A stretch of DNA of 64,000 bases from NCBI RefSeq assembly GCF_055900595.2, contig NZ_CM148325.1. One strand, written 5' to 3'. The notes under the pieces are model-generated. The model had not been told where the DNA came from. It ran no database searches and saw only the letters and a list, made by a program, of their open reading frames with translations. The translations under genes and the position numbers were made by a program. Below, in pieces: positions 11,051 through 53,737 of the stretch (its first letter is position 1; each line of letters begins with the position of its first letter).

Positions 11051-11078
11051 AAGAGTTCGTTATTTATGCCGCATCCGG

Positions 11079-11221
11079 CAGGTGTAGGATCCAAACGCGG
11101 TCGAACACAGCAACTATTTGCGTAATTATATGAGGCATTTGCGACAAAAACTGGAACAGGATCACGTCCGCCCCGCCATTTCATTACTGAAACCGGTATT
11201 GGGTATCGGTTTATGCTTTGA
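11079..11221 (+). repeat. Decayed direct duplicate of the kdpE 3' end (kdpE-remnant pseudo-sequence)
   Basis: 143 bp that align by eye with kdpE 5940-6083 (caggtgt...aaccggtattgggtatcggtttatgc...tga). The copy has TGG to TAG and a 1-nt deletion, so it is non-coding. Confidence 0.8.
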
Positions 11222-11344
11222 AAAAAGTGGCAATGTATGGATAAAGTCATTTTTTATTCAAATATAAGGAACTTAATATTTAAAAAATGTCCCATACAAT
11301 GCCTCATCATAAATGACACCGTAGCACACAAGGAGCAAGTAGCG

Positions 11345-11995
11345 ATGCGTGAAGTGAGTCAGTTAGTAAATACTGAAGATTCAGCCTGGACAATAATCCA
11401 GAATTGGTTAAAAGAAGCCACAAACCATGCCGAACTCTTACCGGTTAATAAAGATTTAGCCGAAACCGCACTTTATCAATTACAGGTTACAACAAAATCA
11501 CCGATGGGTGCGCTTGTCTATGGCTCCGGAGGTCTGCTGATTGATAACGGTTGGTTACGCATATCAGGCTCTGGTCACCCCCGGTTACCACGAGATCCAG
11601 CAAGTTGGACACAACGCCCTGAATTCGCAAGCGTGCGGGCTTTACCCATCGCCGATGATGTCGCAGGGGGAATTTTTGCTCTTAATGGTGGCGATCTTGG
11701 GGAAGATACTGGCTGCGTTTATTATTTTGCGCCAGATACGCTGAATTGGGAAAGTCTGGAGGTTGGATATTCTGAGTTTCTTCAGTGGGCATTATCCGGT
11801 GATTTAGATACCTTCTATGAAAATGTACGCTGGCCGCAATGGCAAGAAGACGTAATAAAATTATCGGCAACGGAAGCCTTCACTTTCTACCCTTTCTTAT
11901 GGGTACAAAGTGAAGAAGCAAGAACAAGAAAAGTTATTTCGCTTACTGAACTCTGGGAAATGCAGTATCAAATGAAAGAAACAATCACGCAATAA
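11345..11995 (+). CDS. ybfG: Conserved hypothetical protein (YbfG-like, DUF2625 by recollection), apparently intact
   Basis: ORF 11237-11995; start placed at ATG 11345, preceded by aaggag at 11330-11335. The ybfG assignment is positional (between potE and ybfP/pgm) and from memory, not from a domain search. Confidence 0.6.
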   Translation: MREVSQLVNTEDSAWTIIQNWLKEATNHAELLPVNKDLAETALYQLQVTTKSPMGALVYGSGGLLIDNGWLRISGSGHPRLPRDPASWTQRPEFASVRALPIADDVAGGIFALNGGDLGEDTGCVYYFAPDTLNWESLEVGYSEFLQWALSGDLDTFYENVRWPQWQEDVIKLSATEAFTFYPFLWVQSEEARTRKVISLTELWEMQYQMKETITQ

Positions 11996-12004
11996 GACAT
12001 GTTC

Positions 12005-12030
12005 AGGTCCGGGTTTCATTCCCGGACTCG
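12005..12030. terminator. Putative bidirectional terminator between convergent ybfG and ybfP
   Basis: gtccggg-tttcatt-cccggac hairpin in the 40-bp gap between the two stop codons. Confidence 0.5.
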
Positions 12031-12035
12031 CTATT

Positions 12036-12530
12036 TTAATGTGTGTTTATCGCTTTCAATTCTTGCTGGCAATTTTCTGACTGACAGCGTCGCAACTCAA
12101 TAATCCCGACATGCATCATCGAGCCAAAAAATCCGCTTTCGCTGACATAATCCTCATTAACTATCGGTCGAGTGCCGGGCTTACCCTGGCAAATCCCCAT
12201 AAAAAATGAGGTGTAGCATTGCCATTCAGGATTTAAACCGGTCTTTTCTTGTGCTGACATATCATGAAGATAAGTAAGTTCTTTTTCGTTCCCGCCTGAC
12301 AACTGCCAGCGGCGGGTATTATCAGGTAAGTTATCGCCACGGCAATTTGTCTTACACCGGGAAGGCGCAATATTTACCGCAATGCTACCCGTTAATCCTC
12401 TGGTTTTATCTTTAGGGGTCAGTAACCAGTCACCAGCTAATGATGATTGTTCAGGTTGGGCGCATGCTGTCAGCAGTAGTGTGGCGGTAATTAATGCCAC
12501 TCTGACGACCAGACTCCTTTTGGTCTTCAT
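12036..12530 (-). CDS. ybfP: Putative lipoprotein YbfP
   Basis: ORF 12036-12581; start placed at MKTKRSLVVRVALITATLLLTAC (lipobox LLTAC), 164 aa. Confidence 0.8.
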   Translation of the reverse strand: MKTKRSLVVRVALITATLLLTACAQPEQSSLAGDWLLTPKDKTRGLTGSIAVNIAPSRCKTNCRGDNLPDNTRRWQLSGGNEKELTYLHDMSAQEKTGLNPEWQCYTSFFMGICQGKPGTRPIVNEDYVSESGFFGSMMHVGIIELRRCQSENCQQELKAINTH

Positions 12531-12584
12531 TTTGAATTCCCTTGAGCTATTCAGTTTGTTGGCAAAGTACTCGTTGTTCATGCC

Positions 12585-12690
12585 GGATGCGGCGTGAACG
12601 CCTTATCCGTCCTACAAAATAGTGCAAATTCAATATATTGCACCATCCTCGTAGGCCTGATGAACGTAGCGTATCAGGCTATCATAAGTA
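12585..12690. repeat. REP/BIME palindromic elements
   Basis: gccggatgcggcgtgaacgccttatcc... and ...gtaggcctgatgaacgtagcgtatcaggc REP-type units between ybfP and pgm. Confidence 0.7.
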
Positions 12691-28759: not shown

Positions 28760-30424
28760 ATGTGTTCAATTTTTGGCGTATTCGATATCAAAACAGACGC
28801 AGTTGAGCTGCGTAAGAAAGCACTCGAGCTGTCACGCTTGATGCGTCATCGTGGCCCGGACTGGTCCGGTATTTATGCCAGCGATAACGCCATTCTCGCC
28901 CACGAACGTCTGTCCATTGTTGACGTTAACGCGGGGGCGCAACCTCTCTACAACCAACAAAAAACTCATGTGCTGGCAGTAAACGGTGAAATCTACAACC
29001 ACCAGGCATTGCGCGCTGAATATGGCGATCGTTACCAGTTCCAGACCGGGTCTGACTGTGAAGTGATCCTCGCGCTGTATCAGGAAAAAGGGCCGGAATT
29101 TCTCGACGATTTGCAGGGCATGTTCGCTTTTGCCCTGTACGACAGCGAAAAAGATGCGTATCTGATTGGTCGCGACCATCTGGGGATCATCCCGCTATAT
29201 ATGGGCTATGACGAACACGGTCAGCTGTATGTGGCCTCAGAAATGAAAGCTCTCGTGCCAGTATGCCGCACGATTAAAGAGTTCCCGGCGGGGAGCTATT
29301 TATGGAGTCAGGACGGCGAAATCCGTTCTTATTATCACCGCGACTGGTTCGACTACGATGCGGTGAAAGATAACGTGACCGACAAAAACGAGCTGCGTCA
29401 GGCACTGGAAGATTCCGTTAAAAGCCATCTGATGTCTGATGTGCCTTACGGTGTGCTGCTTTCTGGTGGTCTGGATTCCTCAATTATTTCCGCGATCACC
29501 AAGAAATACGCCGCCCGTCGCGTGGAAGATCAGGAACGCTCTGAAGCCTGGTGGCCGCAGCTGCACTCCTTTGCTGTAGGTCTGCCGGGTTCACCGGATC
29601 TGAAGGCAGCCCAGGAAGTGGCAAACCATTTGGGCACTGTGCATCATGAAATTCACTTCACTGTACAGGAAGGTCTGGACGCCATCCGCGACGTGATTTA
29701 CCACATTGAAACCTATGATGTGACGACTATCCGCGCTTCAACACCGATGTATTTAATGTCGCGTAAGATCAAAGCGATGGGCATTAAAATGGTGCTGTCC
29801 GGTGAAGGTTCTGATGAAGTGTTTGGCGGTTATCTCTACTTCCACAAAGCGCCGAACGCTAAAGAACTGCATGAAGAGACGGTGCGCAAACTGCTGGCCC
29901 TGCATATGTATGACTGCGCGCGCGCCAACAAAGCGATGTCCGCCTGGGGCGTGGAAGCGCGCGTTCCGTTCCTCGACAAGAAATTCCTCGACGTGGCAAT
30001 GCGTATTAACCCCCAGGATAAAATGTGCGGTAACGGCAAGATGGAAAAACACATCCTGCGTGAATGTTTTGAGTCGTACCTGCCTGCAAGTGTGGCCTGG
30101 CGGCAGAAAGAGCAGTTTTCCGATGGCGTCGGTTACAGTTGGATAGACACTCTGAAAGAAGTGGCGGCGCAGCAGGTTTCTGATCAACAACTGGAAACTG
30201 CCCGTTTCCGCTTCCCGTACAACACGCCGACCTCAAAAGAAGCGTATCTGTACCGGGAGATCTTTGAAGAACTGTTCCCGCTACCGAGCGCCGCTGAGTG
30301 TGTACCGGGCGGCCCGTCCGTCGCGTGTTCTTCCGCTAAAGCGATTGAATGGGATGAGGCGTTCAAGAAAATGGACGATCCGTCTGGTCGTGCGGTTGGC
30401 GTTCACCAGTCGGCCTATAAGTAA
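28760..30424 (+). CDS. asnB: Asparagine synthetase B (glutamine-hydrolysing)
   Basis: ORF 28679-30424; start placed at MCSIFGVFDIK (Cys2 nucleophile of class II amidotransferases), 554 aa; SGGLDSS PP-loop motif. Confidence 0.97.
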   Translation: MCSIFGVFDIKTDAVELRKKALELSRLMRHRGPDWSGIYASDNAILAHERLSIVDVNAGAQPLYNQQKTHVLAVNGEIYNHQALRAEYGDRYQFQTGSDCEVILALYQEKGPEFLDDLQGMFAFALYDSEKDAYLIGRDHLGIIPLYMGYDEHGQLYVASEMKALVPVCRTIKEFPAGSYLWSQDGEIRSYYHRDWFDYDAVKDNVTDKNELRQALEDSVKSHLMSDVPYGVLLSGGLDSSIISAITKKYAARRVEDQERSEAWWPQLHSFAVGLPGSPDLKAAQEVANHLGTVHHEIHFTVQEGLDAIRDVIYHIETYDVTTIRASTPMYLMSRKIKAMGIKMVLSGEGSDEVFGGYLYFHKAPNAKELHEETVRKLLALHMYDCARANKAMSAWGVEARVPFLDKKFLDVAMRINPQDKMCGNGKMEKHILRECFESYLPASVAWRQKEQFSDGVGYSWIDTLKEVAAQQVSDQQLETARFRFPYNTPTSKEAYLYREIFEELFPLPSAAECVPGGPSVACSSAKAIEWDEAFKKMDDPSGRAVGVHQSAYK

Positions 30425-30429
30425 GAAAG

Positions 30430-30460
30430 GCGGTACTGCCCCGGAGAAATCCGGGGCTGT
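30430..30460. terminator. Putative bidirectional terminator between asnB and the convergent 145-codon ORF
   Basis: gccccgga-gaaa-tccggggc hairpin followed by tgtttc. Confidence 0.55.
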
Positions 30461-30465
30461 TTCAG

Positions 30466-30903
30466 TTATTGAGCTGCTTGTTGATTCTGATATGCAGTAA
30501 GGAAATGTTCCGGGTTTGCCACATCACTGTTTGACAACTCATCACTGTAGGCCACCGACCAGGTCGCCTGCTCATCCGGAATATGCAGGCTGCCATTCCC
30601 CTCTTTCAGGCGTAATAACTCAAAAGATTTGCCCTTAATTACGGCGGTATAGGATTTTTCACCTTCCTGTAATGCTTTCACTTTACAGCGAAAAATCTGG
30701 CCATCGATGTCATTATCAACATGCGATACCTGAATGAGGGCTTCATTAGAGGCTTTCGGCCCTATCCGCATCATCCACACCACAGCGCCTTCCTGCCCAC
30801 GATAGCCAAAAACATATTTACCGATTTCCGGTTTGACCGTATCGGCAAACGCAGATTGCATAAGTAATAACGCACCCATCAGCGCCGTCATAAAACGCAG
30901 CAT
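30466..30903 (-). CDS. Hypothetical exported protein (signal peptide plus about 125-aa mature domain), function unknown
   Basis: 145-codon ORF with a GAGGGA Shine-Dalgarno 5 nt upstream of the ATG; N-terminus MLRFMTALMGALLLMQSAFA-DT looks like a Sec signal peptide with an AXA cleavage site. No family recognised by eye. Confidence 0.6.
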   Translation of the reverse strand: MLRFMTALMGALLLMQSAFADTVKPEIGKYVFGYRGQEGAVVWMMRIGPKASNEALIQVSHVDNDIDGQIFRCKVKALQEGEKSYTAVIKGKSFELLRLKEGNGSLHIPDEQATWSVAYSDELSNSDVANPEHFLTAYQNQQAAQ

Positions 30904-31166
30904 AGTATTCCCTCAATAAATCGCCTGAAGTGGTAGCAGAGATGCAGGCGTAGCGATCCCTGCCCTGTCCTGTTGCAACGGGTCAGTATTTCATAGATTA
31001 ATTTCCTACCACTATTGTTGAATTCCGAATTTCATCCTGTATGACAAAAGAATGGCTGTAGGGTGGGGAAAAAACACAAAGTAAACAATAATTGACGAAT
31101 ATAGCGCCACGCTGTTCGCAACCTAACCAAACAGTCACTTTCGAGCAATTTTCCTTGAAAAAGAGG

Positions 31167-31195
31167 TTGACGCTGCAAGGCTCTATACGCATAAT
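31167..31195 (+). promoter_or_regulatory. Promoter of the tRNA operon (stringent-type)
   Basis: -35 ttgacg (31167-31172), 17-bp spacer, -10 cataat (31190-31195), followed by a GC-rich discriminator (gcgcccc) and preceded by an A/T-rich UP-like region. Confidence 0.6.
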
Positions 31196-31235
31196 GCGCC
31201 CCGCAACGCCGATAAGGTATCGCGAAAAAAAAGAT

Positions 31236-31312
31236 GGCTACGTAGCTCAGTTGGTTAGAGCACATCACTCATAATGATGGGGTCACAGGTTCGAATCCCG
31301 TCGTAGCCACCA
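31236..31312 (+). tRNA. metT: tRNA-Met (elongator, anticodon CAU)
   Basis: ggctacgtagctcagttggttagagcacatcactCATaatgatggggtcacaggttcgaatcccgtcgtagccacca; cloverleaf and CCA end present. Confidence 0.95.
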
Positions 31313-31322
31313 TCTTTTTTTT

Positions 31323-31407
31323 GCGGGAGTGGCGAAATTGGTAGACGCACCAGATTTAGGTTCTGGCGCCGCAAGGTGTGCGAGTTCAAGTCTCGCCTCC
31401 CGCACCA
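31323..31407 (+). tRNA. leuW: tRNA-Leu (anticodon UAG)
   Basis: gcgggagtggcgaaattggtagacgcaccagattTAGgttctgg... long variable arm ...tcgcctcccgcacca. Confidence 0.93.
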
Positions 31408-31430
31408 TTCACCAGAAAGCGTTGTACGGA

Positions 31431-31505
31431 TGGGGTATCGCCAAGCGGTAAGGCACCGGTTTTTGATACCGGCATTCCCTGGTTCGAATCCAGGTACCCC
31501 AGCCA
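31431..31505 (+). tRNA. glnU: tRNA-Gln (anticodon UUG)
   Basis: tggggtatcgccaagcggtaaggcaccggtttTTGataccgg...ccccagcca. Confidence 0.93.
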
Positions 31506-31539
31506 TCTTCTTCGAGTAAGCGGTTCACCGCCCGGTTAT

Positions 31540-31614
31540 TGGGGTATCGCCAAGCGGTAAGGCACCGGTTTTTGATACCGGCATTCCCTGGTTCGAATCC
31601 AGGTACCCCAGCCA
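31540..31614 (+). tRNA. glnW: tRNA-Gln (anticodon UUG), second copy
   Basis: Identical 75-nt sequence to 31431-31505. Confidence 0.93.
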
Positions 31615-31629
31615 TCGAAGAAACAATCT

Positions 31630-31706
31630 GGCTACGTAGCTCAGTTGGTTAGAGCACATCACTCATAATGATGGGGTCACAGGTTCGAATCCCGTCGTAG
31701 CCACCA
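31630..31706 (+). tRNA. metU: tRNA-Met (elongator, anticodon CAU), second copy
   Basis: Identical to the metT sequence. Confidence 0.93.
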
Positions 31707-31754
31707 AATTCTGAATGTGTCGAATACGTTCGGCAAATTCACAAACCAATTTGT

Positions 31755-31829
31755 TGGGGTATCGCCAAGCGGTAAGGCACCGGATTCTGATTCCGGCATT
31801 CCGAGGTTCGAATCCTCGTACCCCAGCCA
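31755..31829 (+). tRNA. glnV: tRNA-Gln (anticodon CUG)
   Basis: tggggtatcgccaagcggtaaggcaccggattCTGattccgg...ccccagcca. Confidence 0.93.
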
Positions 31830-31866
31830 ATTTATTCAAGACGCTTACCTTGTAAGTGCACCCAGT

Positions 31867-31941
31867 TGGGGTATCGCCAAGCGGTAAGGCACCGGATTCT
31901 GATTCCGGCATTCCGAGGTTCGAATCCTCGTACCCCAGCCA
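31867..31941 (+). tRNA. glnX: tRNA-Gln (anticodon CUG), second copy
   Basis: Identical to the glnV sequence. Confidence 0.93.
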
Positions 31942-31950
31942 CATTAAAAA

Positions 31951-31974
31951 AGCTCGCTTCGGCGAGCTTTTTGC
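31951..31974 (+). terminator. Intrinsic terminator of the tRNA operon
   Basis: agctcgc-ttcg-gcgagct hairpin followed by ttttt. Confidence 0.8.
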
Positions 31975-32009
31975 TTTTCTGCGTATATTCAATGTCGAAT
32001 GCGATGTTG

Positions 32010-32090
32010 ACACGTCTTATTCTTCAAAGTCGGATGCGACGCTGATGCGTCTTATCCGACCTACAGTTGGCATGCATCCGGCAATGTTGT
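32010..32090. repeat. REP elements
   Basis: cggatgcgacgctgatgcgtcttatccgacctac and related palindromic units between the tRNA operon and ubiF. Confidence 0.7.
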
Positions 32091-32094
32091 AAGG

Positions 32095-33270
32095 CTACAA
32101 CCCTAACGCATATTTCAGCGCCTGACGTTTCAACACGCCAGCTCGCTCCGCCGCCATTAACCCGAGATTACGCATAAAACGCAGTGGCGGCAGATTATTG
32201 CTGAATCCGGCATAAAACAGATCCATACCGCTTTGCATAATGAAGTTATCCGCCATACGCCGCATCTGGTAACGCTTGAGGACAGGATAACTGGCCCACG
32301 CTTCACCGTAGCTGCGGGCATTCACCAGAACGTCAATCAGCGCATCAACATCGCGATAACCAAGATTCACCCCCTGCCCCGCCAGCGGATGAATGGTGTG
32401 CGCCGCATCGCCCACCAGCGCAAGCCCTGGTTGCACATACTGCAACGCATGGCGGCGCGTCAGCGGAAACGCACCAGCGGCGAGTGGCATCACGTACCCA
32501 AGACGCGACGGGAAATGCTTCGCGATTTCCGCCTGGAGCTGCGCCATATTCATATTCTGCAACTGGCGAATACGCACCGGAGAGTCATACCACACCAGCG
32601 ACGCCCAGTTATCAAACAGCGGCAGAAACGCGCGCGGCCCGTCCGGAGTAAACTGCTGCCAGGTGCTGTCGCCGGGATCATTCTCGCACTGTACGCTAAT
32701 CAACATACACGACTGCGCATACTGCCAGGCATGAACGCCAATTCCCGCCATTTGCCGCACCTGCGAATTTGCACCGTCAGCGCCAATCACCAGCTTCGCC
32801 TGGATCACTTCGCCCCCCTTCAGTTCCAGTTCCTGAAGATCATTATGGCGATGCAGAGCAATCAGTGAGCCTGGCACACGTAACGTTACTTTCGGATGCG
32901 CTTCCAGCGCCTGCCACAGCGCCTGTTGCAGGACAGTGTTTTCCACCATATAGCCAAGCAACGGCAGCTTCAATTCGGCTGCATCAAACACCACATGCGC
33001 CGTTTCCCACTCCCACGTTTCCAGTCTGCGATAAGGATGGCAACGCATGGCCTGTACCGCGTCCCAGACGCCTAAATCTTTAAGCAATGATACCGAAGCC
33101 GCGCTGATCGCCGAGATCCGCACGTCAGGCTGGCTGTCAGCGACAAACGGTGCAGGTTCTGCGTGCTCGATTACCGTTACCGAAAATCCGTGCTGTGCCA
33201 GTCCCAGCGCCAGTGCGCCGCCGACCATTCCTCCGCCGACAATGGCAATTTCCGTTGGTTGATTTGTCAT
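32095..33270 (-). CDS. ubiF: Ubiquinone biosynthesis FAD-dependent hydroxylase UbiF
   Basis: ORF 32095-33276; start placed at MTNQPTEIAIVGGGMVGG (GxGxxG FAD-binding motif). Confidence 0.93.
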   Translation of the reverse strand: MTNQPTEIAIVGGGMVGGALALGLAQHGFSVTVIEHAEPAPFVADSQPDVRISAISAASVSLLKDLGVWDAVQAMRCHPYRRLETWEWETAHVVFDAAELKLPLLGYMVENTVLQQALWQALEAHPKVTLRVPGSLIALHRHNDLQELELKGGEVIQAKLVIGADGANSQVRQMAGIGVHAWQYAQSCMLISVQCENDPGDSTWQQFTPDGPRAFLPLFDNWASLVWYDSPVRIRQLQNMNMAQLQAEIAKHFPSRLGYVMPLAAGAFPLTRRHALQYVQPGLALVGDAAHTIHPLAGQGVNLGYRDVDALIDVLVNARSYGEAWASYPVLKRYQMRRMADNFIMQSGMDLFYAGFSNNLPPLRFMRNLGLMAAERAGVLKRQALKYALGL

Positions 33271-39158: not shown

Positions 39159-41096
39159 TTACGGTTCAGGGATACAAGCCACATCGCCATATTGGGGATG
39201 CCGAATAATTGCCTGCGGATCAAGCGAGCGCGTCCTGTCCATTTGGATTAACCCGTTCTTCGCCATAACAAATATCTTTCTACCATCCGCTGAAAAACGA
39301 AGATGATTAACGTAGCTGGCAGGATAAACGCCAATAATCTGCCCGGCATTAATATTGAGCAGGATGACATAACCTTGCAGGCCATATGACACCAACGCTA
39401 AATACTGACCGTCCGGGCTAATACCCTCAACAGAATAAACGCTCCTGCTACACCATTGCGTCATAATGCTGGCTTGTTGATCCCCTGTGCTTATACCTGA
39501 AATCCCCTGACTATCGGCAAAAATAACCTCACCATTTTTTGGTCGGAATCCCATCGCAGAAACGACACCACGCGCATCACCTGCGGGAAAATCTTCTTTC
39601 TGATGCGTGATGGTATTGATCCGCACGATGTTACCTCTGCCTGCTCCCGGAACCAGTAATGTTTTTTCATCCGGGGAAAGTGCCATAACCCAGGCGCCTG
39701 GTTTACCGCTCGTCCCCGTCCCGTCGTATTTCTCCAGTGGGATATCCGCCACATGCTGATAAGTCACCAGATCAATCGCTGACACACTATTACTGGTGCG
39801 ATTCATCACCCAGGCTTTTGTGCCATCACGCGAGAGGATAAGGCTGTCAGGATGGGCGCCGGTGGTAATCGACTGAATAATCTCCCCCGTCGCCACGTTA
39901 ATGACCGATACTGCATTCGCTTCAAATGAAGTCGCATACAGCAACTTTTCATCGGGGCTTAACACCAGCGATCTGACGCCCTGATCTTTACAGCCACCAC
40001 AATGTTTGACTGACTTTTCTTTCGCTATGGGCGCTGTAAAGGTATGCAGGATTTTCTTTTGTCCGAGGTCGAAAACAACAATACTGTTCGTGTTTTCAAT
40101 TGCGGCATAAAACGTATTACCATCCCGACTGATCGCCATATCATGGATATCGGCAATCTCAGCGAGCAAATCACCACTGGCCTGTTCACGACTTACCGGA
40201 GCGGGTAATGTTTCCCTGAGGGCGTTGCGTTCCTCCGCTAACTGCTGCTTTTTATGCCGTCGCTCTTGTTCAATCTCCTGCGGATAAAACTCTTCACGCA
40301 GGCTTTGCCTGACCTGCAAAACTGATTCATCAATCTGCTGCTGCACAAGCCAGATAGCCCCGGTCAGTAGAAGACTACCCGCAACAATAATCCCGCCTTC
40401 CGTAACAAGTCGGTTTTGCCCAGATAAACGCGCACTCAGCCAACCCAACGCGCCCCCCGCAATCAGGCCGCCAATGTGGCAAGCGTTATCTATTCCTGTT
40501 TGCCGGGTACCATACAACAGTGTCAGCGCCACCATACCCAACAGAGAAAATACTCGCCGCTGGTTTTTATGGTGTGTACCCGCACCTGAAGAAAGCTGTG
40601 TTGCTATCGCAGCGCCAGCTATTCCCATAATTGCCCCGGATGCCCCAACGCTGATGACTATCTGCTCACTTTCGCGTAACGCATAACAGGCGCTGATGAG
40701 CCCACCAAAGATGCCGGAGAATAACCAGATAATCAGGAGTCGCCATTTCCCCAGTATCCGTTCCGCCACTGTCCCCACCACCAGGAGTGCAAACATATTC
40801 ATCAGCAAATGGGAAAAACTACTGTGCAGAAAAACACTGCTCAATAAGCGCCAGGGTTCACCCGACAACGTGAGAGAGGCAACGTTAGCGCCGAGATGGA
40901 TGAGTGCGGATTGATCGACTTCTTCATAACTCATCCATTGTGCGAGGTAACAAAATATCCCAACACATAGCGCAAAAAGGATCAGGGTTATTGCGGGTAA
41001 TTGAACATTTAACGGCTTAACCGAAGATGCAGACATAAGGTGATTCTTCCTTGAAAAGACAGGTAAAAAAGCATTTTTCCCGTGTGCAGTTATCAT
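39159..41096 (-). CDS. Rhomboid-family intramembrane serine protease fused to a C-terminal beta-propeller-like repeat domain (uncharacterized)
   Basis: 645-codon ORF. Rhomboid hallmarks read directly: WRLLSSVFLHSSFSHLLMNMF (H-x4-H-x3-N), GASGAIMG (candidate catalytic Ser, ORF residue 153), HIGGLIAG (candidate catalytic His, residue 207). A further hydrophobic helix (GGIIVAGSLLLTGAIWLV) and a charged linker follow. The C-terminal ~340 aa carry reiterated S/T-x-D-G ... N-x-V-S-V-I units. An alternative start at Met21 (41036) is possible. Confidence 0.8.
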   Translation of the reverse strand: MITAHGKNAFLPVFSRKNHLMSASSVKPLNVQLPAITLILFALCVGIFCYLAQWMSYEEVDQSALIHLGANVASLTLSGEPWRLLSSVFLHSSFSHLLMNMFALLVVGTVAERILGKWRLLIIWLFSGIFGGLISACYALRESEQIVISVGASGAIMGIAGAAIATQLSSGAGTHHKNQRRVFSLLGMVALTLLYGTRQTGIDNACHIGGLIAGGALGWLSARLSGQNRLVTEGGIIVAGSLLLTGAIWLVQQQIDESVLQVRQSLREEFYPQEIEQERRHKKQQLAEERNALRETLPAPVSREQASGDLLAEIADIHDMAISRDGNTFYAAIENTNSIVVFDLGQKKILHTFTAPIAKEKSVKHCGGCKDQGVRSLVLSPDEKLLYATSFEANAVSVINVATGEIIQSITTGAHPDSLILSRDGTKAWVMNRTSNSVSAIDLVTYQHVADIPLEKYDGTGTSGKPGAWVMALSPDEKTLLVPGAGRGNIVRINTITHQKEDFPAGDARGVVSAMGFRPKNGEVIFADSQGISGISTGDQQASIMTQWCSRSVYSVEGISPDGQYLALVSYGLQGYVILLNINAGQIIGVYPASYVNHLRFSADGRKIFVMAKNGLIQMDRTRSLDPQAIIRHPQYGDVACIPEP

Positions 41097-41491: not shown

Positions 41492-42400
41492 ATGCAATTA
41501 CGTAAACCTGCCACAGCAATCCTGGCCCTGGCGCTTTCCGCAGGACTGGCACAGGCAGATGACGCCGCCCCGGCAGCGGGCAGTACGCTGGACAAAATCG
41601 CCAAAAACGGTGTGATTGTCGTCGGTCACCGTGAATCTTCAGTACCTTTCTCTTATTACGACAATCAGCAAAAAGTGGTGGGTTACTCGCAGGATTACTC
41701 CAACGCCATTGTTGAAGCAGTGAAAAAGAAACTCAACAAACCGGACTTGCAGGTGAAACTGATTCCGATCACCTCACAAAACCGTATTCCTCTGCTGCAA
41801 AACGGCACTTTCGATTTTGAATGTGGTTCTACCACCAACAACGTCGAACGCCAAAAACAGGCGGCTTTCTCTGACACTATTTTCGTGGTCGGTACGCGCC
41901 TGCTGACCAAAAAGGGCGGCGATATCAAAGATTTTGCCGACCTGAAAGGCAAAGCCGTAGTCGTTACTTCCGGCACTACCTCTGAAGTTTTGCTCAACAA
42001 ACTGAATGAAGAGCAAAAAATGAATATGCGCATCATCAGCGCCAAAGATCACGGTGACTCTTTCCGCACCCTGGAAAGCGGTCGTGCCGTTGCCTTTATG
42101 ATGGATGACGCTCTGTTAGCCGGTGAGCGAGCGAAAGCGAAGAAACCAGACAACTGGGAAATCGTCGGCAAGCCGCAGTCTCAGGAAGCCTACGGTTGCA
42201 TGTTGCGTAAAGACGATCCGCAGTTCAAAAAGCTGATGGATGACACTATCGCTCAGGTGCAGACCTCCGGTGAAGCGGAAAAATGGTTTGATAAGTGGTT
42301 CAAAAATCCAATTCCGCCGAAAAACCTGAACATGAATTTCGAACTGTCGGACGAAATGAAAGCACTGTTCAAAGAACCGAATGACAAGGCACTGAACTAA
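41492..42400 (+). CDS. gltI: Glutamate/aspartate ABC transporter periplasmic binding protein
   Basis: ORF 41417-42400; start placed at MQLRKPATAILALALSAGLAQA (signal peptide), 302 aa. Confidence 0.93.
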   Translation: MQLRKPATAILALALSAGLAQADDAAPAAGSTLDKIAKNGVIVVGHRESSVPFSYYDNQQKVVGYSQDYSNAIVEAVKKKLNKPDLQVKLIPITSQNRIPLLQNGTFDFECGSTTNNVERQKQAAFSDTIFVVGTRLLTKKGGDIKDFADLKGKAVVVTSGTTSEVLLNKLNEEQKMNMRIISAKDHGDSFRTLESGRAVAFMMDDALLAGERAKAKKPDNWEIVGKPQSQEAYGCMLRKDDPQFKKLMDDTIAQVQTSGEAEKWFDKWFKNPIPPKNLNMNFELSDEMKALFKEPNDKALN

Positions 42401-42556
42401 TTACAAGAACCAGGGGCGGAAATTCCAGCCCTCTCGATTGTTACGTAGCACGGACAGACTATACGCCTGATGGTCGTTCCCCATCGGGCCTGAAAACCGC
42501 AATACGCTGGGTAACAATCTTCGAGGGTAGCAGTTAACGCTGCTACCCTCTTTTTT
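42395..42556 (+). ncRNA. sroC: SroC-like sRNA derived from the gltI-gltJ spacer (3' end at terminator); 5' end approximate
   Basis: The gltI-gltJ intergenic region ends in a strong hairpin gagggtagcag-ttaac-gctgctaccctc followed by tttttt (42523-42556). Position matches the SroC sRNA described for the gltIJKL mRNA in E. coli and Salmonella. Confidence 0.55.
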
Positions 42557-42569
42557 CTGGAGTAGATTT

Positions 42570-43310
42570 ATGTCTATAGACTGGAACTGGGGTATTTTTT
42601 TACAACAAGCCCCGTTCGGCAACACCACCTATCTTGGTTGGATCTGGAGTGGTTTTCAGGTGACGATCGCTTTGTCGATCTGCGCCTGGATTATCGCTTT
42701 CCTTGTCGGTTCATTTTTCGGCATTTTACGTACCGTTCCAAACCGTTTTCTCTCCGGTCTGGGTACGTTGTATGTCGAACTGTTCCGCAACGTGCCGTTG
42801 ATTGTGCAATTCTTTACCTGGTATCTGGTTATCCCTGAACTGTTGCCGGAAAAAATCGGCATGTGGTTTAAGGCAGAACTAGACCCAAATATTCAGTTTT
42901 TCCTCTCCTCCATGCTCTGTCTGGGACTGTTTACTGCAGCTCGTGTTTGCGAACAAGTACGCGCCGCGATTCAGTCGTTGCCGCGTGGGCAAAAGAATGC
43001 CGCGCTGGCAATGGGTCTGACGCTACCGCAGGCTTACCGCTACGTACTGTTGCCTAACGCTTATCGCGTTATCGTCCCGCCAATGACCTCTGAGATGATG
43101 AACCTGGTAAAAAACTCCGCCATCGCCTCGACCATCGGTCTGGTGGATATGGCGGCGCAGGCCGGTAAATTGCTCGATTACTCGGCCCACGCCTGGGAGT
43201 CATTTACCGCCATTACGCTGGCGTATGTGTTGATTAACGCTTTTATCATGCTGGTGATGACGCTGGTTGAACGTAAAGTTCGCCTGCCCGGCAACATGGG
43301 GGGCAAATAA
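42570..43310 (+). CDS. gltJ: Glutamate/aspartate ABC transporter permease
   Basis: 246-aa polytopic ORF with the ABC permease EAA-like region. Confidence 0.93.
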
Positions 43311-43983
43311 TGTACGAGTTTGACTGGAGTTCCATTGTTCCTTCCCTGCCATATCTGCTCGACGGGCTGGTGATCACCCTGAAAATCACCATCACGGCGG
43401 TGGTCATTGGTATTTTGTGGGGTACGATGCTGGCAGTAATGCGCTTGTCCAGCTTTGCGCCGATTGCCTGGTTTGCCAAAGCCTACGTTAACGTATTCCG
43501 CTCGATTCCTTTAGTCATGGTTTTGCTGTGGTTTTACCTGATTGTGCCGGGTTTTCTGCAAAACGTGCTGGGATTATCGCCAAAAAATGATATCCGTTTA
43601 ATTTCGGCGATGGTGGCGTTTTCGATGTTTGAAGCGGCCTACTATTCAGAGATTATCCGTGCCGGTATTCAAAGTATTTCCCGTGGGCAGTCGAGCGCCG
43701 CGCTGGCGTTGGGGATGACTCACTGGCAGTCGATGAAACTGATTATTCTGCCGCAGGCGTTCCGCGCTATGGTGCCGCTGCTGCTCACTCAGGGCATCGT
43801 ACTGTTCCAGGATACCTCACTGGTGTATGTGTTATCTCTGGCCGATTTCTTCCGTACCGCCTCAACCATTGGTGAGCGTGATGGTACACAGGTCGAAATG
43901 ATTCTGTTTGCCGGGTTTGTTTATTTCGTTATTAGCCTTAGCGCATCGTTGTTGGTCAGCTACTTGAAAAGAAGGACAGCATA

Positions 43984-43984
<1 letters not shown>
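43310..43984 (+). CDS. gltK: Glutamate/aspartate ABC transporter permease
   Basis: 224-aa polytopic ORF; start overlaps the gltJ stop. Confidence 0.93.
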
Positions 43985-44709
<725 letters not shown>

Positions 44710-44826
44710 TCACTCTGGCGCGCATACCCAAGTGCGCGCCATCTCACGCTTTCTCGTTTCGGCCCTCGTATCTGTTACATCCTGGCGTTACCCTTGTCGC
44801 AAAGAAGCACACAACAAGGAGCAACA

Positions 44827-45762
44827 ATGGCACTGCCAATTCTGTTAGATTGCGATCCAGGTCATGACGACGCTATCGCAATAGTTCTCGCCCTCGCCTC
44901 ACCAGAGCTTGATGTCAAAGCAATTACGTCTTCCGCCGGAAACCAGACACCAGAAAAAACCTTACGCAATGTTCTGCGTATGCTGACCTTGCTTAATCGC
45001 ACCGATATTCCGGTAGCAGGCGGCGCGGTAAAACCATTAATGCGTGATTTGATTATCGCGGACAATGTGCACGGCGAAAGCGGTCTCGACGGCCCTGCAT
45101 TACCGGAACCGACGTTCGCACCGCAAAACTGTACGGCGGTGGAGTTGATGGCGAAAACGCTGCGTGAAAGTGCGGAACCTGTCACGATTGTTTCTACCGG
45201 ACCGCAAACTAACGTTGCCTTGCTGCTCAATAGCCACCCGGAACTGCATAGCAAAATCGCCCGAATCGTGATTATGGGCGGCGCAATGGGGATTGGTAAC
45301 TGGACGCCAGCCGCCGAGTTTAATATTTATGTTGACCCGGAAGCGGCAGAAATTGTCTTCCAGTCAGGGATCCCGGTGGTGATGGCCGGTCTGGATGTTA
45401 CTCACAAAGCGCAAATTTACGTTGAGGACACCGAGCGTTTCCGCGCGATTGGCAACCCTGTTTCAACCATTGTTGCCGAACTGCTGGATTTCTTCCTCGA
45501 ATATCATAAAGACGAAAAATGGGGCTTTGTTGGCGCACCGCTGCATGACCCATGCACCATCGCCTGGCTGTTGAAACCAGAGTTGTTTACCACTGTTGAG
45601 CGCTGGGTTGGCGTGGAAACACAAGGGAAATATACCCAGGGTATGACGGTTGTTGATTATTATTATCTGACCGGCAATAAACCGAATGCTACTGTAATGG
45701 TCGATGTTGATCGTCAGGGCTTTGTTGATTTACTGGCTGATCGTCTGAAATTTTACGCTTAA
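44827..45762 (+). CDS. rihA: Pyrimidine-specific ribonucleoside hydrolase RihA
   Basis: ORF 44794-45762; start placed at [19 protein letters not shown] (the DxDxxxDD nucleoside hydrolase motif), 311 aa. Confidence 0.93.
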
Positions 45763-45845
45763 CACACGTCATTGATTAAGATCACCACGCGTTACCTGGG
45801 TGGTCTTAATCTGTTTATCTCTTTTTCCTTTAAGATATAAATGCA

Positions 45846-47516
45846 ATGGATAATGCAGAACTCGCCATTGGTATCGATCTCGGTACTACCAATAGTTTAA
45901 TTGCCGTCTGGAAAGACGGTGCCGCGCAATTAATTCCAAATAAGTTCGGTGAATATTTAACACCATCCATAATTAGCATGGATGAAAATAATCATATTTT
46001 AGTCGGAAAACCCGCTGTATCACGGCGCACTTCGCATCCGGATAAAACGGCAGCGTTATTTAAACGTGCAATGGGCAGTAATACCAACTGGCGGTTAGGC
46101 AGCGACACATTTAACGCGCCTGAACTGTCCTCTTTGGTATTACGCTCATTAAAAGAAGATGCCGAAGAATTTCTGCAACGTCCGATTAAAGATGTGGTGA
46201 TCTCCGTTCCGGCTTATTTCAGCGATGAACAACGCAAGCATACCCGTTTAGCAGCGGAGTTAGCCGGGTTAAATGCGGTACGCTTAATTAATGAACCCAC
46301 AGCAGCTGCGATGGCATATGGCCTGCATACGCAACAAAATACCCGCTCGCTGGTTTTTGATCTCGGTGGCGGCACGTTTGACGTCACGGTGCTCGAATAC
46401 GCCACGCCGGTGATTGAAGTTCACGCCTCCGCTGGCGACAACTTTCTTGGCGGCGAAGATTTTACTCATATGCTGGTGGATGAAGTTTTAAAACGCGCCG
46501 CAGTGGCTAAAAACATGCTCAACGAAAGTGAGCTGGCAGCCCTGTACACCAGCGTGGAAGCGGCAAAATGCAGCAATCAATTACCGCTGCAAATTAGCTG
46601 GCAGTATCAGGAAGAAACGCGTGAGTGCGAATTTTACGAGAACGAACTGGAAGATTTGTGGTTGCCGCTGCTCAATCGCTTGCGAGTGCCGATTGAACAG
46701 GCGTTGCGCGATGCACGTCTGAAGCCAAGTCAAATCGACAGTCTGGTGCTGGTTGGCGGCGCATCACAAATGCCGCTGGTGCAGCGAATCGCCGTGCGTC
46801 TGTTTGGCAAATTACCGTATCAAAGTTACGACCCGAGTACTATTGTCGCGCTGGGCGCAGCGATCCAGGCCGCCTGCCGCTTACGCAGCGAAGACATTGA
46901 AGAAGTGATCCTCACCGATATTTGCCCCTACTCCTTAGGTGTTGAAGTTAACCGCCAGGGCGTTTCCGGCATTTTCTCACCGATTATTGAACGAAACACC
47001 ACTGTACCGGTGTCGCGTGTAGAAACTTACTCGACCATGCACCCGGAACAGGATTCAATTACGGTTAACGTCTATCAGGGAGAAAACCACAAAGTTAAAA
47101 ATAACATTCTGGTAGAATCCTTCGATGTGCCGTTGAAGAAAACCGGGGCTTATCAGTCGATTGATATTCGCTTTAGTTATGATATCAACGGGTTGCTTGA
47201 AGTTGACGTGCTTCTGGAAGACGGCAGCGTTAAGTCCAGAGTCATTAACCACAGTCCTGTAACATTGAGCGCACAGCAGATTGAAGAGAGTCGGACGCGG
47301 TTATCCGCATTGAAAATTTATCCGCGCGATATGCTCATCAACCGCACCTTTAAGGCCAAACTGGAAGAGTTGTGGGCGCGGGCGCTGGGTGACGAGCGAG
47401 AAGAGATCGGCCGGGTGATCACCGATTTTGATGCGGCGTTGCAGTCAAACGATATGGCCCGCGTCGATGAAGTTCGGCGACGGGCGAGCGATTATTTGGC
47501 TATTGAGATCCCTTAA
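45846..47516 (+). CDS. hscC: Hsp70-family chaperone HscC (Hsc62)
   Basis: 556-aa ORF with the Hsp70 N-terminal ATPase signature (IGIDLGTTNS, DLGGGTFD), shorter than DnaK. Confidence 0.93.
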   Translation: MDNAELAIGIDLGTTNSLIAVWKDGAAQLIPNKFGEYLTPSIISMDENNHILVGKPAVSRRTSHPDKTAALFKRAMGSNTNWRLGSDTFNAPELSSLVLRSLKEDAEEFLQRPIKDVVISVPAYFSDEQRKHTRLAAELAGLNAVRLINEPTAAAMAYGLHTQQNTRSLVFDLGGGTFDVTVLEYATPVIEVHASAGDNFLGGEDFTHMLVDEVLKRAAVAKNMLNESELAALYTSVEAAKCSNQLPLQISWQYQEETRECEFYENELEDLWLPLLNRLRVPIEQALRDARLKPSQIDSLVLVGGASQMPLVQRIAVRLFGKLPYQSYDPSTIVALGAAIQAACRLRSEDIEEVILTDICPYSLGVEVNRQGVSGIFSPIIERNTTVPVSRVETYSTMHPEQDSITVNVYQGENHKVKNNILVESFDVPLKKTGAYQSIDIRFSYDINGLLEVDVLLEDGSVKSRVINHSPVTLSAQQIEESRTRLSALKIYPRDMLINRTFKAKLEELWARALGDEREEIGRVITDFDAALQSNDMARVDEVRRRASDYLAIEIP

Positions 47517-47575
47517 ACACGGCTGCCGGATGCGGCATAAACGCTGCATTCGGCATCGGCGCAAAAAACACATCC

Positions 47576-49027
47576 TCAGCTAAACAACATCGCGATTTTT
47601 CCGAGAGCATAACCTATCACCAGCACCGTTAAGCTGATTTTGATAATGCTGGTAATGCTCTGTGGTTTTTCATCCTCATCATTTTTTTCTTCGTGGTTTT
47701 CAGGTGTTGGCTCATCGACATCTTCATCCTCCGGCTCGAGTTTCACTTTCGTCAACAGCATCCGCGTGATAATGGCCTCTAATGGATGAGCATCTCCACC
47801 TTCCAGCCTTGTATTAAGACGGGCCAGCATCTCTTGTTTCGGGAACGCTTCCAGCACAACCTGTTCCGCTACCCGATACAAATCCAGTAACGGTGAATCT
47901 TGTTCTGTCTCGCTACCGACTCTCGATTTCCACCATGCCCATGTTTTGCGCTTGAAGAATAACGACTCAATAAACGATTGACCTAACGGCGATAATTTTC
48001 CGCTATGTAAAATTTCCGCCCATAACAGCCTCGTCCGGGCGCTCTCACCAGGAACATATTTCAGCGGCTTACCTTGCGCATCAACCATGCTTCGCGCTTC
48101 GATAACCATCACTAACAGCGCGAAGTAATCCGGGCAATGTTGCGCACTCCACTGCAGTAATAAATTATCGGCTTGTGTAGATGGATAACTTTCCCAGTAA
48201 CCACAGAGATCGGCAAGCATGCTTTCACCCTCGCCGCAGTATAACCGTTGCGCACACTGGTAATATCGGGCATCTTCACTTTCTGGTTCTTCCGTTTGCC
48301 ACTGTTGCGCTACAGAAATGAGTTCCGCCATACCTGTTTGCACCGAGCTATACCAGCGCAACAATTTGCGATGCAACTTCGCATCATCGGGAATGAACCA
48401 CGGACCTTCCATCGCCAAAAACGCAGTGACATAGTCAGGGTGATAACGGCAGCAGCGTTCCAATGCGAAGTAATACTCAACAGTCTGGTTCTGCAACGCG
48501 ACGGGATATTCCAGAAGGCTTAGAAAATCGAAACAATCCCCGGCCTGAATGGCCTCAAGAAAAGCCTCCCGTTCTTCCTCGTCCATGCCTTCACTTTCAT
48601 TAAATGAATGCCAGTTCAAACGCTCTGCCAGCAAAGAAGCACAATTTAATGAAAGATATCGCGCTTCTGTAGCGATTGCACACAGCGGCCAGCGTAATTG
48701 ATCGACATCCTCCATGTTCCAGGTATTTAATTGCTGAATAAATTTCTGCCAGGCGGAGGGCTGAAAACGATCGCTTTCCGAAGCCAGTAAGGTTCTGAAC
48801 GCTTTCAGTGCTTCGTGCTCTTCTGCAAGATTTTTCTCGTCATCAGCATTTTTTTCGTCCGGATTGACAGCCAGTCGCAGCGCCTCTTCATAGGCCTGGC
48901 GTAATGCTTTAAACCCCTGCGGATCGGTTTCGGGATGACACAACGGTAAGCGAGCAAGATAAGCCTGGCGGATACTGTCTATTTGCGTCGTGCTTTCAAT
49001 TTCGAGGATTTGCCAACATGTTTTCAT
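47576..49027 (-). CDS. djlC: J-domain-like co-chaperone DjlC (YbeV), C-terminally membrane-anchored
   Basis: 483-aa ORF with an N-terminal J-like region (…[11 protein letters not shown]…) and a C-terminal hydrophobic helix ([17 protein letters not shown]); paralogous to the ORF at 50396-51823. Confidence 0.85.
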
Positions 49028-49731
49028 AGGTCGCTCACATCCTTAAGCGTTACCGGGCATTCAGGCTGGACAATTAATGGCTGCCAGGGAAGCGTGGCAT
49101 AGAAACGATCGCTTCCCGCTGCCAACTCCTCGAACATCCGACTCCCGGCGTTATCGTATTTGTACAGGGTTAGCGCCTCGCGTAGCGAAGCGTTGTCTTC
49201 ACACTGGGAAGATTGCCAGTAGAGACGTCCTAATGAATAGGCGGCAAAATAGTGAATCCAGCTGTGATAATAATGGTGAGCTCGTACATAAACGCGCGAT
49301 TGCAGCCATAAACTCTCTTCTTCCGTCAGCCAATTGTTGAGCACACCGACCCGCGATAAAAACCCCATCCGCACATAATCCCAGGCTTTGATTCCCCCTT
49401 CCCCACAACACATAGCGGTTTGGGCAACGAATTGGGTATAAATCAACCCTCTCTCCGAGCCGCCAGCAATTAATGTTTTCCACTCTTCAGGGGAAGAGCG
49501 ATGCCATGTCAGATATAAGCCAGCTAAATCATTGGCATGACCATCATCGGTCATCTGATAAATAGTCTGAATTAAATCATCACGATTATTTATTCCCCAG
49601 GATGATGAGAGATCGAATTCTTTTATCCCAGTATACATTTTTGGCGAGTCATGCGCTGGCTTGCAACCCTGATTAAGTATTTCCATGGGTGCAGAAAGCG
49701 CAAAAAGAAGATATTGTTCTTCCTTATTCAT
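49024..49731 (-). CDS. ybeU: DUF1266-type protein YbeU
   Basis: 235-aa ORF whose stop overlaps the djlC start (ATGA at 49024-49027); paralogous to the ORF at 51820-52563. The DUF1266 label is from memory. Confidence 0.8.
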
Positions 49732-49831
49732 TTGTTAATAATCCCTTAAGTGCATTAACTGACTACTTTTTTATTATCGATGAGTATAAACTTGACGTTT
49801 TCAAAATAAAAGAAAATAGAAGTATTCATGC

Positions 49832-50386
49832 ATGAATAAAAAATTAATATATATATTCGCAATATTTATAGTTGCGGCAATTACCTGTATTAGCCAACCC
49901 AACAAAACGACCCTGCGCGATAAAGCTATGGCGAATTATGTCTTTGATTATTTAAGCTCACCGGGCAGTCTTCCGTTTACCACGGCAGCAACAGAGCTTT
50001 CCGCCATTCATGGTCACTCAACGTCGCAATATAGACTTGGCGAATTTTATCTTCATGGTAGCGATGGTAAGCCTCTGGATTATACAAAGGCGAGATACTG
50101 GTATGAGCAATCAGCGGAACAGGAAAATCCACGCGCGCAAAGTCAACTGGGATGGATCTACCTGAAAGGTTTGGGAGTCAATCCCGATACCCGTAAAGCA
50201 ATTCTCTGGCATAAGGAAGCAGCTGAACAAGGGCATGTTCATGCACAATACACGTTGGGTTTGATCTACAGAAACGGCACGGGCATTAGCACCAACAATT
50301 ATGAAGCTCGCAAATGGTTAGAACTGGCGGCAGAGCAACATTATAAAAATGCGGAAAGATTACTTGCAGAGCTTCCCGCACATTAA
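49832..50386 (+). CDS. ybeT: Sel1-repeat (TPR-like) exported protein YbeT
   Basis: 184-aa ORF with an N-terminal hydrophobic segment and repeated Sel1 units (A-x-S/Q-Q-x-xLG-x-x-Y-x-x-G-x-G-V). Confidence 0.8.
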
Positions 50387-50395
50387 CGTCGACTT

Positions 50396-51823
50396 TCACC
50401 CGAACAGATGAAGTATTTTCCCTATCAAACCGGCAAAGATAAAAATATAGAAAATAATTTTAATGATGCCCAGACAGCCCGGCCCACCATCGTCAACGGG
50501 CATTGGCTGCGGTTGCGGCTCCGGCTTGACGGTTTGTTGCCCGGCAAAATTCGCCGACTGAATTAATAATCGTCGAATTATTAATGCGTCCAGAGGACAA
50601 CGATCTTCTGCATCAAGGCGGGCGACGATCGGCATCAATGATTCTTCTGTCGGTTGGCTGGTCTTCACTAATTGTTTAGCAACTAAATATAATGGCCATA
50701 AGGGATGTTCTGTATCACGCGTGAGTGAGATTCGCGGCTTACGCCCTTTGTGCAAAACCATCTCAACCAGAGAACGCCCCAGCGCAGAGAGTTTCTCATC
50801 GCTGAGTATTTCGTATAATTGAAAGCGCGTACGCGCACTGTCGCCAGGAACATAAAGTAACGGTTTCCCCTGATCGTTAACCAGTTCACGTGCTTCAATC
50901 ATCATCACGACTAACGGGTAATAATCGACCCGATGCTGACGGCACCATTGCAACATTAATACATCTGCCTGGGTCGAGGGAGACTCGCGCCAGAAGTCAC
51001 AAAGTTCTGCCAGCAAGCTTTCGCCTTCTCCACAATAGACGCGTTGCGCGTATTCATAATAACGCGCATCTTCATTATCAGGTTCAGTTTCCCGCCATGA
51101 CCGGGCGTAGTCCAGGAGTTCGGGTATTCCCAGGCGGACTGCGCTATACCAGCACAGTAAATTTCTGTGCAGTTTTACATCATCGGGGATAATTACCGCA
51201 CGATGTTGCGATAAATATAATGTCAGCCATTCTGGATGCGATGACCAAATCCGCGCGAACATTTGGTAAAAATCAATGGTTTCATTTTGCACGGCAACAG
51301 GCAGATGCAGAATGGTCTGGAAGTTAAAAACATTCCCCTTCGCAATGGCATATAAAAAGGATTCCAGTTCTTCTTCGTCTATTTCCCCGGTGTTTTCCTC
51401 CTGTCGCCACCGCAATCTTTCTGCTAATAAAGCCACGCACTCGAAGGATAAATGGGCAGTGTTCATGGCTATTGTGCACAGTGACCAGCGTAATTCATCA
51501 ATATCTTCCATCGAGCAATAATTTAATTGCTGAATGAATCGCTGCCAGGCAGAGGGCAGAAAACGTTCGCTATCAGAGGCGAGTAACGCACGAAAGGCGA
51601 ACAGTATTTCATGTTCTGCAACTTCATGTTCTTCTGGTTGCCAAACAGATTTAGCAGGCGACTGCGCAATCCGTAGCGCGTCCTCATACGCCTGACGAAG
51701 TTGTTTAAAACCCTGCGGATCGGTTTCTGGATGAAAGGACGGTAACAGCGCCAGATAAGCGCGGCGGATAATATCGACTTCAGTCGTTTCCTCTATTTCG
51801 AGAATCTTCCAGCAATTTTTCAT
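50396..51823 (-). CDS. djlB: J-domain-like co-chaperone DjlB (YbeS), C-terminally membrane-anchored
   Basis: 475-aa ORF, N-terminus [39 protein letters not shown] closely parallels DjlC; C-terminal hydrophobic tail. Confidence 0.85.
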
Positions 51824-52563
51824 AGGTCGCTCATATCCTTAAGCGTTTCCGGGCATGCAGAATAGTAAGCCAATGGTTGCCAGGACAAGGTAGGGTAATA
51901 CGCATCATCACTGGCAAATAATTGATAAAACATATCATTGCCGGAATCGTCGTATTCTTTACGCGCTAAAAATTCACGTAATAACTGAAGATTATCATCT
52001 TCGGGAGACTGCCAATATTGCCGACCAAAGGTATAACCGGCAAAGTATTGCTGCCAGTTACTATAATAACGTAGCGCCCGTAGATGAATGCGCGACTGGA
52101 TCCATAGACTTTCTTCTTCGCTCAACCAGTTATTAAGTACGCCCATTCGGCTTAAAAAACCCATCCGGACATAATCCCAGGCTTTGATTCCCCCTTCGCC
52201 ACAGCATTCGGCGGTGCTGGCGACAAATTGCGCATAAGCCTGACCTTGCTCATTTAGTTCAGCAAGATAATCACGCCATTCACATGGAGAATAACGAAAC
52301 CAGCGGTGATAAAGCCCTGCCAACCGAGCGGCATGACCGTTATCGATCATTCGGTGAATTGTACGCAGCAGGTCATCACGGTCATCAATTCCCCATGAGG
52401 AAGAAAGGTCAAAAAAGCATGTACCTAAATACATTTTGGGGGATGAATGCGAAGGTAAACAGCATTCATTGCGTATTTCCATCGGAGTGGAAAGTGCAAA
52501 CAATATTTTTTGCGACTCCATGTCCATATAATTTATCCTTAAACATTCATTTAATGAATACAA
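51820..52563 (-). CDS. ybeR: DUF1266-type protein YbeR
   Basis: ORF of 247 codons (true start may be an internal Met, e.g. [11 protein letters not shown]); its stop overlaps the djlB start; paralog of YbeU. Confidence 0.8.
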
Positions 52564-52684
52564 ACTACATTGCGAGACTCAGTTATTTATACTTTTCTGA
52601 CGCAACATAATACGCATAAAATAAGGCTTACGCAAAAATGGAATACATAAAAATATAATATGTTTTATCTACAACCATAAGGAA

Positions 52685-53668: not shown

Positions 53669-53737
53669 AGATAAAAACAAGGGCCGGGGAATTTTATTCG
53701 GCCCATATTCTCTTTATTGCTGTTTGAAATCGGACCA

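Follow-up and report, generated by a model that had tools for sequence, protein, structure and literature searches.

Several tRNA operons of E. coli, among them valU-valX-valY-lysV, lysT-valT-lysW-valZ-lysYZQ, argQZYV-serV and glyVXY, carry tandem identical tRNA copies behind one promoter, end in a Rho-independent terminator and are matured by RNase E and RNase P (PMC2241853, PMC3985628, PMC11480407). The seven-tRNA metT (supB-E) operon resembles them in all of these respects. Its sequence was first obtained in 1981, by Nakajima, Ozeki and Shimura (as cited in PMC4041420), its maturation pathway has served studies of RNase E and RNase P as a model, and its essentiality has already been tested. 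In K-12, northern blots with nine probes revealed a full-length transcript in which all seven tRNAs are present, together with intermediates that extend from metT to metU (PMC2241853). The Rho-independent terminator is taken off by RNase E, with RNase G as a back-up, and the tRNAs are separated at their mature 5' ends by RNase P, which is inhibited when the terminator is retained (PMC2241853). Together with secG-leuU, the metT operon follows a mixed pathway in which terminator removal by RNase E stimulates the separating action of RNase P, a route that, unlike that of other polycistronic tRNA operons, is neither purely RNase E-dependent nor purely RNase P-dependent (PMC2241853). The only RNase E cleavages within the array that have been detected in vivo lie downstream of metU, and these require a single-stranded region 5' of metU as well as the neighbouring glnW tRNA (PMC3985628, PMC9841416). 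The transcription unit is essential, and every gene for the CAU (elongator), UAG, UUG and CUG anticodons resides within it (PMC11480407).

The locus described here lies in a 64-kb stretch of DNA (64,000 nt), all of which was analysed and which we refer to as the window. ARAGORN, run over the whole window, called exactly seven tRNA genes, all of them on the + strand. The same seven were recovered with the Rfam model RF00005 at 57.6-71.1 bits, where the gathering score is 29, and the associated E-values of 6e-11 to 1e-14 exclude chance as an explanation for these calls. The array, which extends from 31236 to 31941 on one strand, reads Met(CAU)-Leu(UAG)-Gln(UUG)-Gln(UUG)-Met(CAU)-Gln(CUG)-Gln(CUG). 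The first gene, metT (31236-31312), encodes an elongator tRNA-Met of 77 nt with an encoded CCA and is identical to the K-12-like gene. It is followed by leuW (31323-31407; tRNA-Leu, 85 nt), by glnU (31431-31505; tRNA-Gln, 75 nt) and glnW (31540-31614), by the second elongator tRNA-Met gene, metU (31630-31706), and finally by glnV (31755-31829; tRNA-Gln, 75 nt) and glnX (31867-31941). Direct string comparison established that metT and metU, glnU and glnW, and glnV and glnX are identical base for base. Between the two kinds of tRNA-Gln gene there are seven differing positions, consisting of the wobble base and six bases that make up three compensatory stem pairs. The longest spacer in the array is the 48 nt between metU and glnV (31707-31754); glnW and metU are separated by only 15 nt. 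[quoted passage not shown] Both tRNA finders and the string comparison agree with that reading, and the names and order are those of the K-12 literature (PMC2241853, PMC6265465, PMC11480407). The limits that it had assigned to the operon, 31167-31974, are also sensible, in that the first is the initial base of the promoter and the last falls within the T-run that follows the terminator hairpin.

This locus is the long-known seven-tRNA metT (supB-E) operon of E. coli, which nearly every genome of the species carries in essentially the same form. Each of the seven gene sequences recurs without a mismatch at an annotated tRNA position of a K-12-like locus (L003), in the same order. Of 5426 complete E. 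coli genomes, 5424 match the array with its surroundings (1.7 kb), and the features annotated beneath the match are asnB, two tRNA-Met, one tRNA-Leu and four tRNA-Gln genes, and ubiF. In three E. coli genomes the annotated neighbours place the array between asnB and ubiF/miaB, and collinearity with E. coli Z0117EC0005 holds over the entire window, which runs from the kdp operon to mrdB. The operon of the window shares with that of K-12 the seven gene sequences, their order and anticodons, and the flanking asnB and ubiF; the promoter hexamers, discriminator, leader and terminator hairpin are likewise identical. Within the transcribed region the two differ only in the metT-leuW spacer, which has eight T residues in the window and seven in K-12, and at three positions in the metU-glnV spacer (two substitutions and a 1-nt indel). 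Upstream of the array the window keeps a 431-bp segment, and with it an intact 145-aa ORF, that has been lost from K-12-like genomes. We consider it nearly certain that the operon model as a whole is correct, comprising a single promoter and transcript, K-12-type processing, essentiality and internal duplicates; none of the results speaks against it. The presence of a seven-tRNA operon at this place is confirmed as real, correctly read and already known, and the finding is an ordinary one. The same order of seven genes also occurs in E. albertii, in Pseudocitrobacter, in Enterobacteriaceae G50 and in a contig labelled S. enterica, and these four loci were aligned with the window and a K-12-like genome to give the six-locus alignment used below.

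A promoter search of 30400-32200 yielded a single promoter-like site, a sigma-70-type promoter at 31167-31195 (+) with 10 of 12 matches to the consensus. It consists of a -35 element, TTGACG (31167-31172), a 17-nt spacer and a -10 element, CATAAT (31190-31195), and both hexamers are invariant over the six-locus alignment. Immediately 5' of the -35 element is an A-rich tract, AAAAAGAGG (31158-31166, +), also invariant in the six loci, which may be an UP-element-like sequence. Directly 3' of CATAAT comes a GC-rich discriminator, GCGCCC(CGC), which together with a 5' leader ending in A8-GAU occupies 31196-31235 (+); the discriminator and the 34-nt leader are nearly invariant across the six loci. 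A GC-rich discriminator is a sequence hallmark of stringently controlled stable-RNA promoters. The preliminary description had called this promoter stringent-type, and the promoter does have near-consensus hexamers and such a discriminator; judged from the discriminator sequence, the metT promoter may be subject to stringent or growth-rate control. In the accessible literature we found no direct test of ppGpp or stringent control for this promoter. The first native base of a published construct for the in-vitro precursor (CGCAACGCCGATAAGGTA, primer in PMC3985628) suggests that the transcript starts near 31202.

At its downstream end the array is closed, as had also been noted previously, by a strong terminator (31947-31981, +). 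The terminator search identified a GC-rich hairpin of 11 pairs, AAAAAGCUCGC-UUCG-GCGAGCUUUUU (31947-31972), followed by the T-run GCUUUUCUG, and this terminator is described as Rho-independent (PMC2241853). Of the six aligned loci, five have the same GC core in this stem (GCTCGC/GCGAGC), and the sixth (L010) carries one change that is compatible with a G-U pair. On the + strand of 30400-32200 there are two terminator-like sites, one after glnX and the other directly after asnB; the search of this interval detected no promoter-like site and no extra terminator inside the array. A REP-like palindromic element, CGGATGCGACGCTGATGCGTCTTATCCGACCTACA, separates the tRNA terminator from the end of ubiF (at about 32020-32065), and a 36-nt piece of it is 100% identical to an E. 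coli plasmid.

The inter-tRNA spacers diverge freely between the six loci. In the glnV-glnX spacer a small hairpin is kept while the sequences of its stem differ by lineage, as read by eye from the alignment. The leuW-glnU spacer of E. albertii (L004, about 2396-2499) contains an insert of about 81 bp beginning with TGGGGCATATCC. This insert may be a decayed extra copy of a tRNA-Gln gene, because its start resembles the tRNA-Gln 5' end (TGGGGTATCGCC). Variation among the loci extends to the Gln(CUG) genes themselves, which were compared as pairs at L006 1947-2132 and L010 1446-1631. In Escherichia both copies have one form of the anticodon stem and in Pseudocitrobacter both have another, while Enterobacteriaceae G50 combines the two, with the Pseudocitrobacter form in its first copy and the Escherichia form in its second. 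This pattern, drawn from three lineages only, suggests that the pair may have been homogenised by gene conversion, that is, by concerted evolution.

The metT-leuW spacer (31313-31322, +; UCU8) has a further property. A perfect 13-nt inverted repeat flanks metT (31225-31237 and 31310-31322; A8GATGG and CCATCT8), such that the spacer together with the CCA end is perfectly complementary to the leader. In the predicted RNA fold the acceptor stem of the metT precursor is prolonged by about 11 base pairs through pairing of the A-run with the U-run. The length of the T-run varies, with T8 in the window, T7 in the K-12-like locus, T6 in L009 and T5 in E. albertii. When an 87-nt probe with T8 was compared with E. 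coli genomes, 1950 of the 5423 matching genome records showed at least 99% identity, a count that is an upper bound because some of the probe matches consist of two joined pieces. One might imagine that the leader-trailer helix is a tunable element that governs access of RNase P, or partial termination after the first tRNA. If this were so, the U-run helix would determine how much metT is made relative to the six tRNAs downstream, but we regard the idea, for which the repeat and the fold count neither way, as very unlikely to be right. Ten genomes gave no match to the 87-nt metT-leuW probe at 80% or above. Among them is E. coli MC1061 (NZ_CP195014.1), in which the probe matches over its first 37 nt only, the tRNA-Met part; this could be an assembly issue or a rearrangement.

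By analogy with K-12, from whose literature the single transcript, the order of processing and the essentiality are transferred to the strain of the window, expression of the operon would proceed as follows. Transcription from the sigma-70 promoter at 31167-31195 would yield an RNA of about 780 nt, which would contain all seven tRNAs and stop at the terminator at 31947-31981. RNase E, backed up by RNase G, would act first, removing the terminator and cutting downstream of metU as in K-12. RNase P would next cut at every mature 5' end and so release the individual tRNAs, and exonucleases would trim the 3' trailers back to the genomically encoded CCA. The operon would in this way supply all of the elongator tRNA-Met, all of the tRNA-Gln with both anticodons and the only tRNA-Leu(UAG), and it should be essential because it is the sole source of these elongator Met, Gln and Leu(UAG) tRNAs. 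The internal duplicates would represent tandem gene duplications that raise gene dosage, and their identity would be maintained by selection and gene conversion.

For the assignment of the two CAU genes the anticodon by itself is not sufficient. ARAGORN names a tRNA by its anticodon, and CAU does not separate elongator tRNA-Met from initiator tRNA-fMet or from tRNA-Ile2, in which the CAU is lysidine-modified, so that the label Met might in principle have been wrong. The E. coli initiator tRNA has three consecutive G-C pairs (GGG/CCC) in its anticodon stem, and the acceptor stem of E. coli ileX is GGCCCCU. The CAU genes of the window have a paired G1-C72 acceptor end and an anticodon stem, CAUCA/UGAUG, that does not contain three consecutive G-C pairs, which speaks against an initiator, and their acceptor stem, GGCUACG, differs from that of ileX, which speaks against tRNA-Ile2. 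They are, moreover, identical to RefSeq-annotated tRNA-Met genes and to metT and metU, the only two elongator tRNA-Met genes, whose elongator role has been shown experimentally (PMC6265465). Both are elongator tRNA-Met genes, and we assign next to no probability to either of the other classes. A separate issue is whether the array is one transcription unit or is instead composed of two or more, for example with a second promoter before metU that derives from a duplicated Met-Gln-Gln unit. Such a duplicated unit is suggested by the order Met-(Leu)-Gln-Gln / Met-Gln-Gln, and the 9 nt that lie 5' of metT and of metU are similar (AAAAAAGAT and AAACAATCT, respectively). Nevertheless, the promoter search detected nothing within the array, the short glnW-metU spacer leaves merely 15 nt, and the K-12 northern blots display the full-length precursor as well as the metT-to-metU intermediates (PMC2241853). 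More than one transcription unit is consequently a very improbable arrangement. The order Met-Leu-Gln-Gln-Met-Gln-Gln and the similar upstream sequences would fit an old duplication of a unit resembling Met-Gln-Gln, with tandem duplication coming afterwards.

The remaining alternative is that horizontal transfer brought in the tRNA array, or the 145-aa ORF upstream of it, as part of an island inserted at a tRNA gene. The ORF (30466-30903, -) is transcribed away from the tRNA promoter and is part of the context of the operon rather than of the operon itself. It overlaps the variable segment (30553-30983), whose size of 431 nt, accurate to within 2 nt on either side given a CA microhomology, was determined by alignment to the K-12-like locus and to strain Z1322HEC0009. 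In support of an island, just 985 of the 5426 complete E. coli genomes have the segment and it is missing from about 82% of them, including the K-12-like ones, so that the earlier characterisation of the ORF as variable was accurate. The G+C content of the ORF is slightly low, 46.8% compared with 50.8% for the window, and an unrelated contig carries a 55%-identical homologue next to another tRNA-Met gene, together with toxin-antitoxin-like ORFs. Other observations weigh heavily on the opposite side. When copies of the tRNA 3' ends (16-30 nt, with 1-2 mismatches allowed) were sought elsewhere in the 64-kb window, on either strand, none was found, near the ORF or anywhere else; a repeat finder detected no att-like repeat in 30300-32200; and no integrase gene is annotated in the 64 kb, according to the annotation of a 99.9%-identical genome. 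The neighbours are all core genes, asnB, nagD and nagC on one side and ubiF, miaB and ybeZ on the other, the annotation shows core genes out to 20 kb in both directions, and the nearest transposase, the only one in the window, is about 20 kb away. The two ORF-less loci that were aligned, the K-12-like one and that of Z1322HEC0009, share a clean 431-bp gap with the 2-nt CA microhomology and retain in place the last ~88 nt of the ORF as a 3' remnant. Because of this gap, remnant and microhomology, the ORF-less state is best read as a deletion, with no empty attachment site. Further, in E. albertii, Pseudocitrobacter and Enterobacteriaceae G50 the intact ORF likewise has asnB on one side and the tRNA promoter on the other, and this synteny marks the ORF as ancestral and not an insertion. 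On these sequence comparisons, deletion has removed it from most E. coli. The locus therefore resembles tRNA-integrated islands in having strain-variable DNA beside tRNA genes and in nothing more. In contrast to such islands, it has no integrase, no att repeat and no sign of mobility, every genome that carries the segment having a single, chromosomal copy; its variable DNA is 5' of the operon promoter instead of at a tRNA 3' end; and the variation is the deletion of an ancestral gene instead of an insertion. We judge that an island has only a very slight chance of being the correct explanation. The preliminary description had come to the same view from the lack of an integrase or of an att-like duplication of a tRNA 3' end nearby. 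The whole-window search and the annotation uphold this, and the deletion and the synteny across genera are stronger evidence than was then available. Since the variable DNA reflects a lineage-specific deletion of an ancestral gene for a small, predicted secreted protein, no island, phage or defence system is to be expected here. The value of these results is one of annotation: this part of the window is ordinary E. coli core chromosome, and its tRNA genes are intact.

The 145-aa ORF is annotated as a hypothetical protein, WP_000943486.1. A GAGG Shine-Dalgarno sequence is located 7 nt before its ATG, and the N-terminus is signal-peptide-like. Searches for Pfam and NCBIfam families gave no match, even at E <= 1. 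Its 46 homologues belong, where named, to the Enterobacteriaceae, and their entries read "hypothetical protein"; the name "DUF4367 domain-containing" is attached to one UniRef entry, but a Pfam scan of the protein of the window gave no such domain. An AlphaFold model, for which the input was a 17-sequence alignment, contains a signal peptide, an eight-stranded beta-barrel and a C-terminal helix and is fairly confident (pLDDT 81.7), so the product is predicted to be a secreted eight-stranded beta-barrel protein. Foldseek returned no significant match to the model in the PDB (best E-value 0.04). The likeness to small barrels, among them those of PliC, fHbp and avidins (TM-scores <=0.64, normalised to target length) is weak and is no evidence of function. 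The 55%-identical homologue mentioned above is situated between amiC and mltA (L011, 2121-3813), with a tRNA-Met(CAU) gene some 800 bp away, and adjoins RelE/HigB-like and HTH antitoxin-like ORFs, labels that were read from the translations. A small accessory cluster close to another tRNA gene is therefore a further setting in which the family of the 145-aa protein occurs.

Some features of the remainder of the window deserve mention. Up to about 42 kb it is 99.98% identical to the nearest complete genome. From about 42000 to 56000, an interval that covers gltI, rihA, hscC, djlC-ybeU, djlB-ybeR and ybeQ, there are up to 100 mismatches per kb, after which divergence is low again. This interval looks like a recombination tract that is unrelated to the tRNA operon. 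The possibility that the change in divergence begins at the operon was considered and rejected, as binned mismatches place its start near 42 kb. The single transposase gene is an IS200/IS605-family tnpA (10406-10915, -) in the variable pgm-potE interval, and beside it, in 11000-12600, the annotation of the matching genome lists a frameshifted winged-helix pseudogene, a DUF2625 protein and a hypothetical protein. According to the same annotation, a 625-aa rhomboid-family intramembrane serine protease is encoded between lnt and gltI (39159-41096, -).
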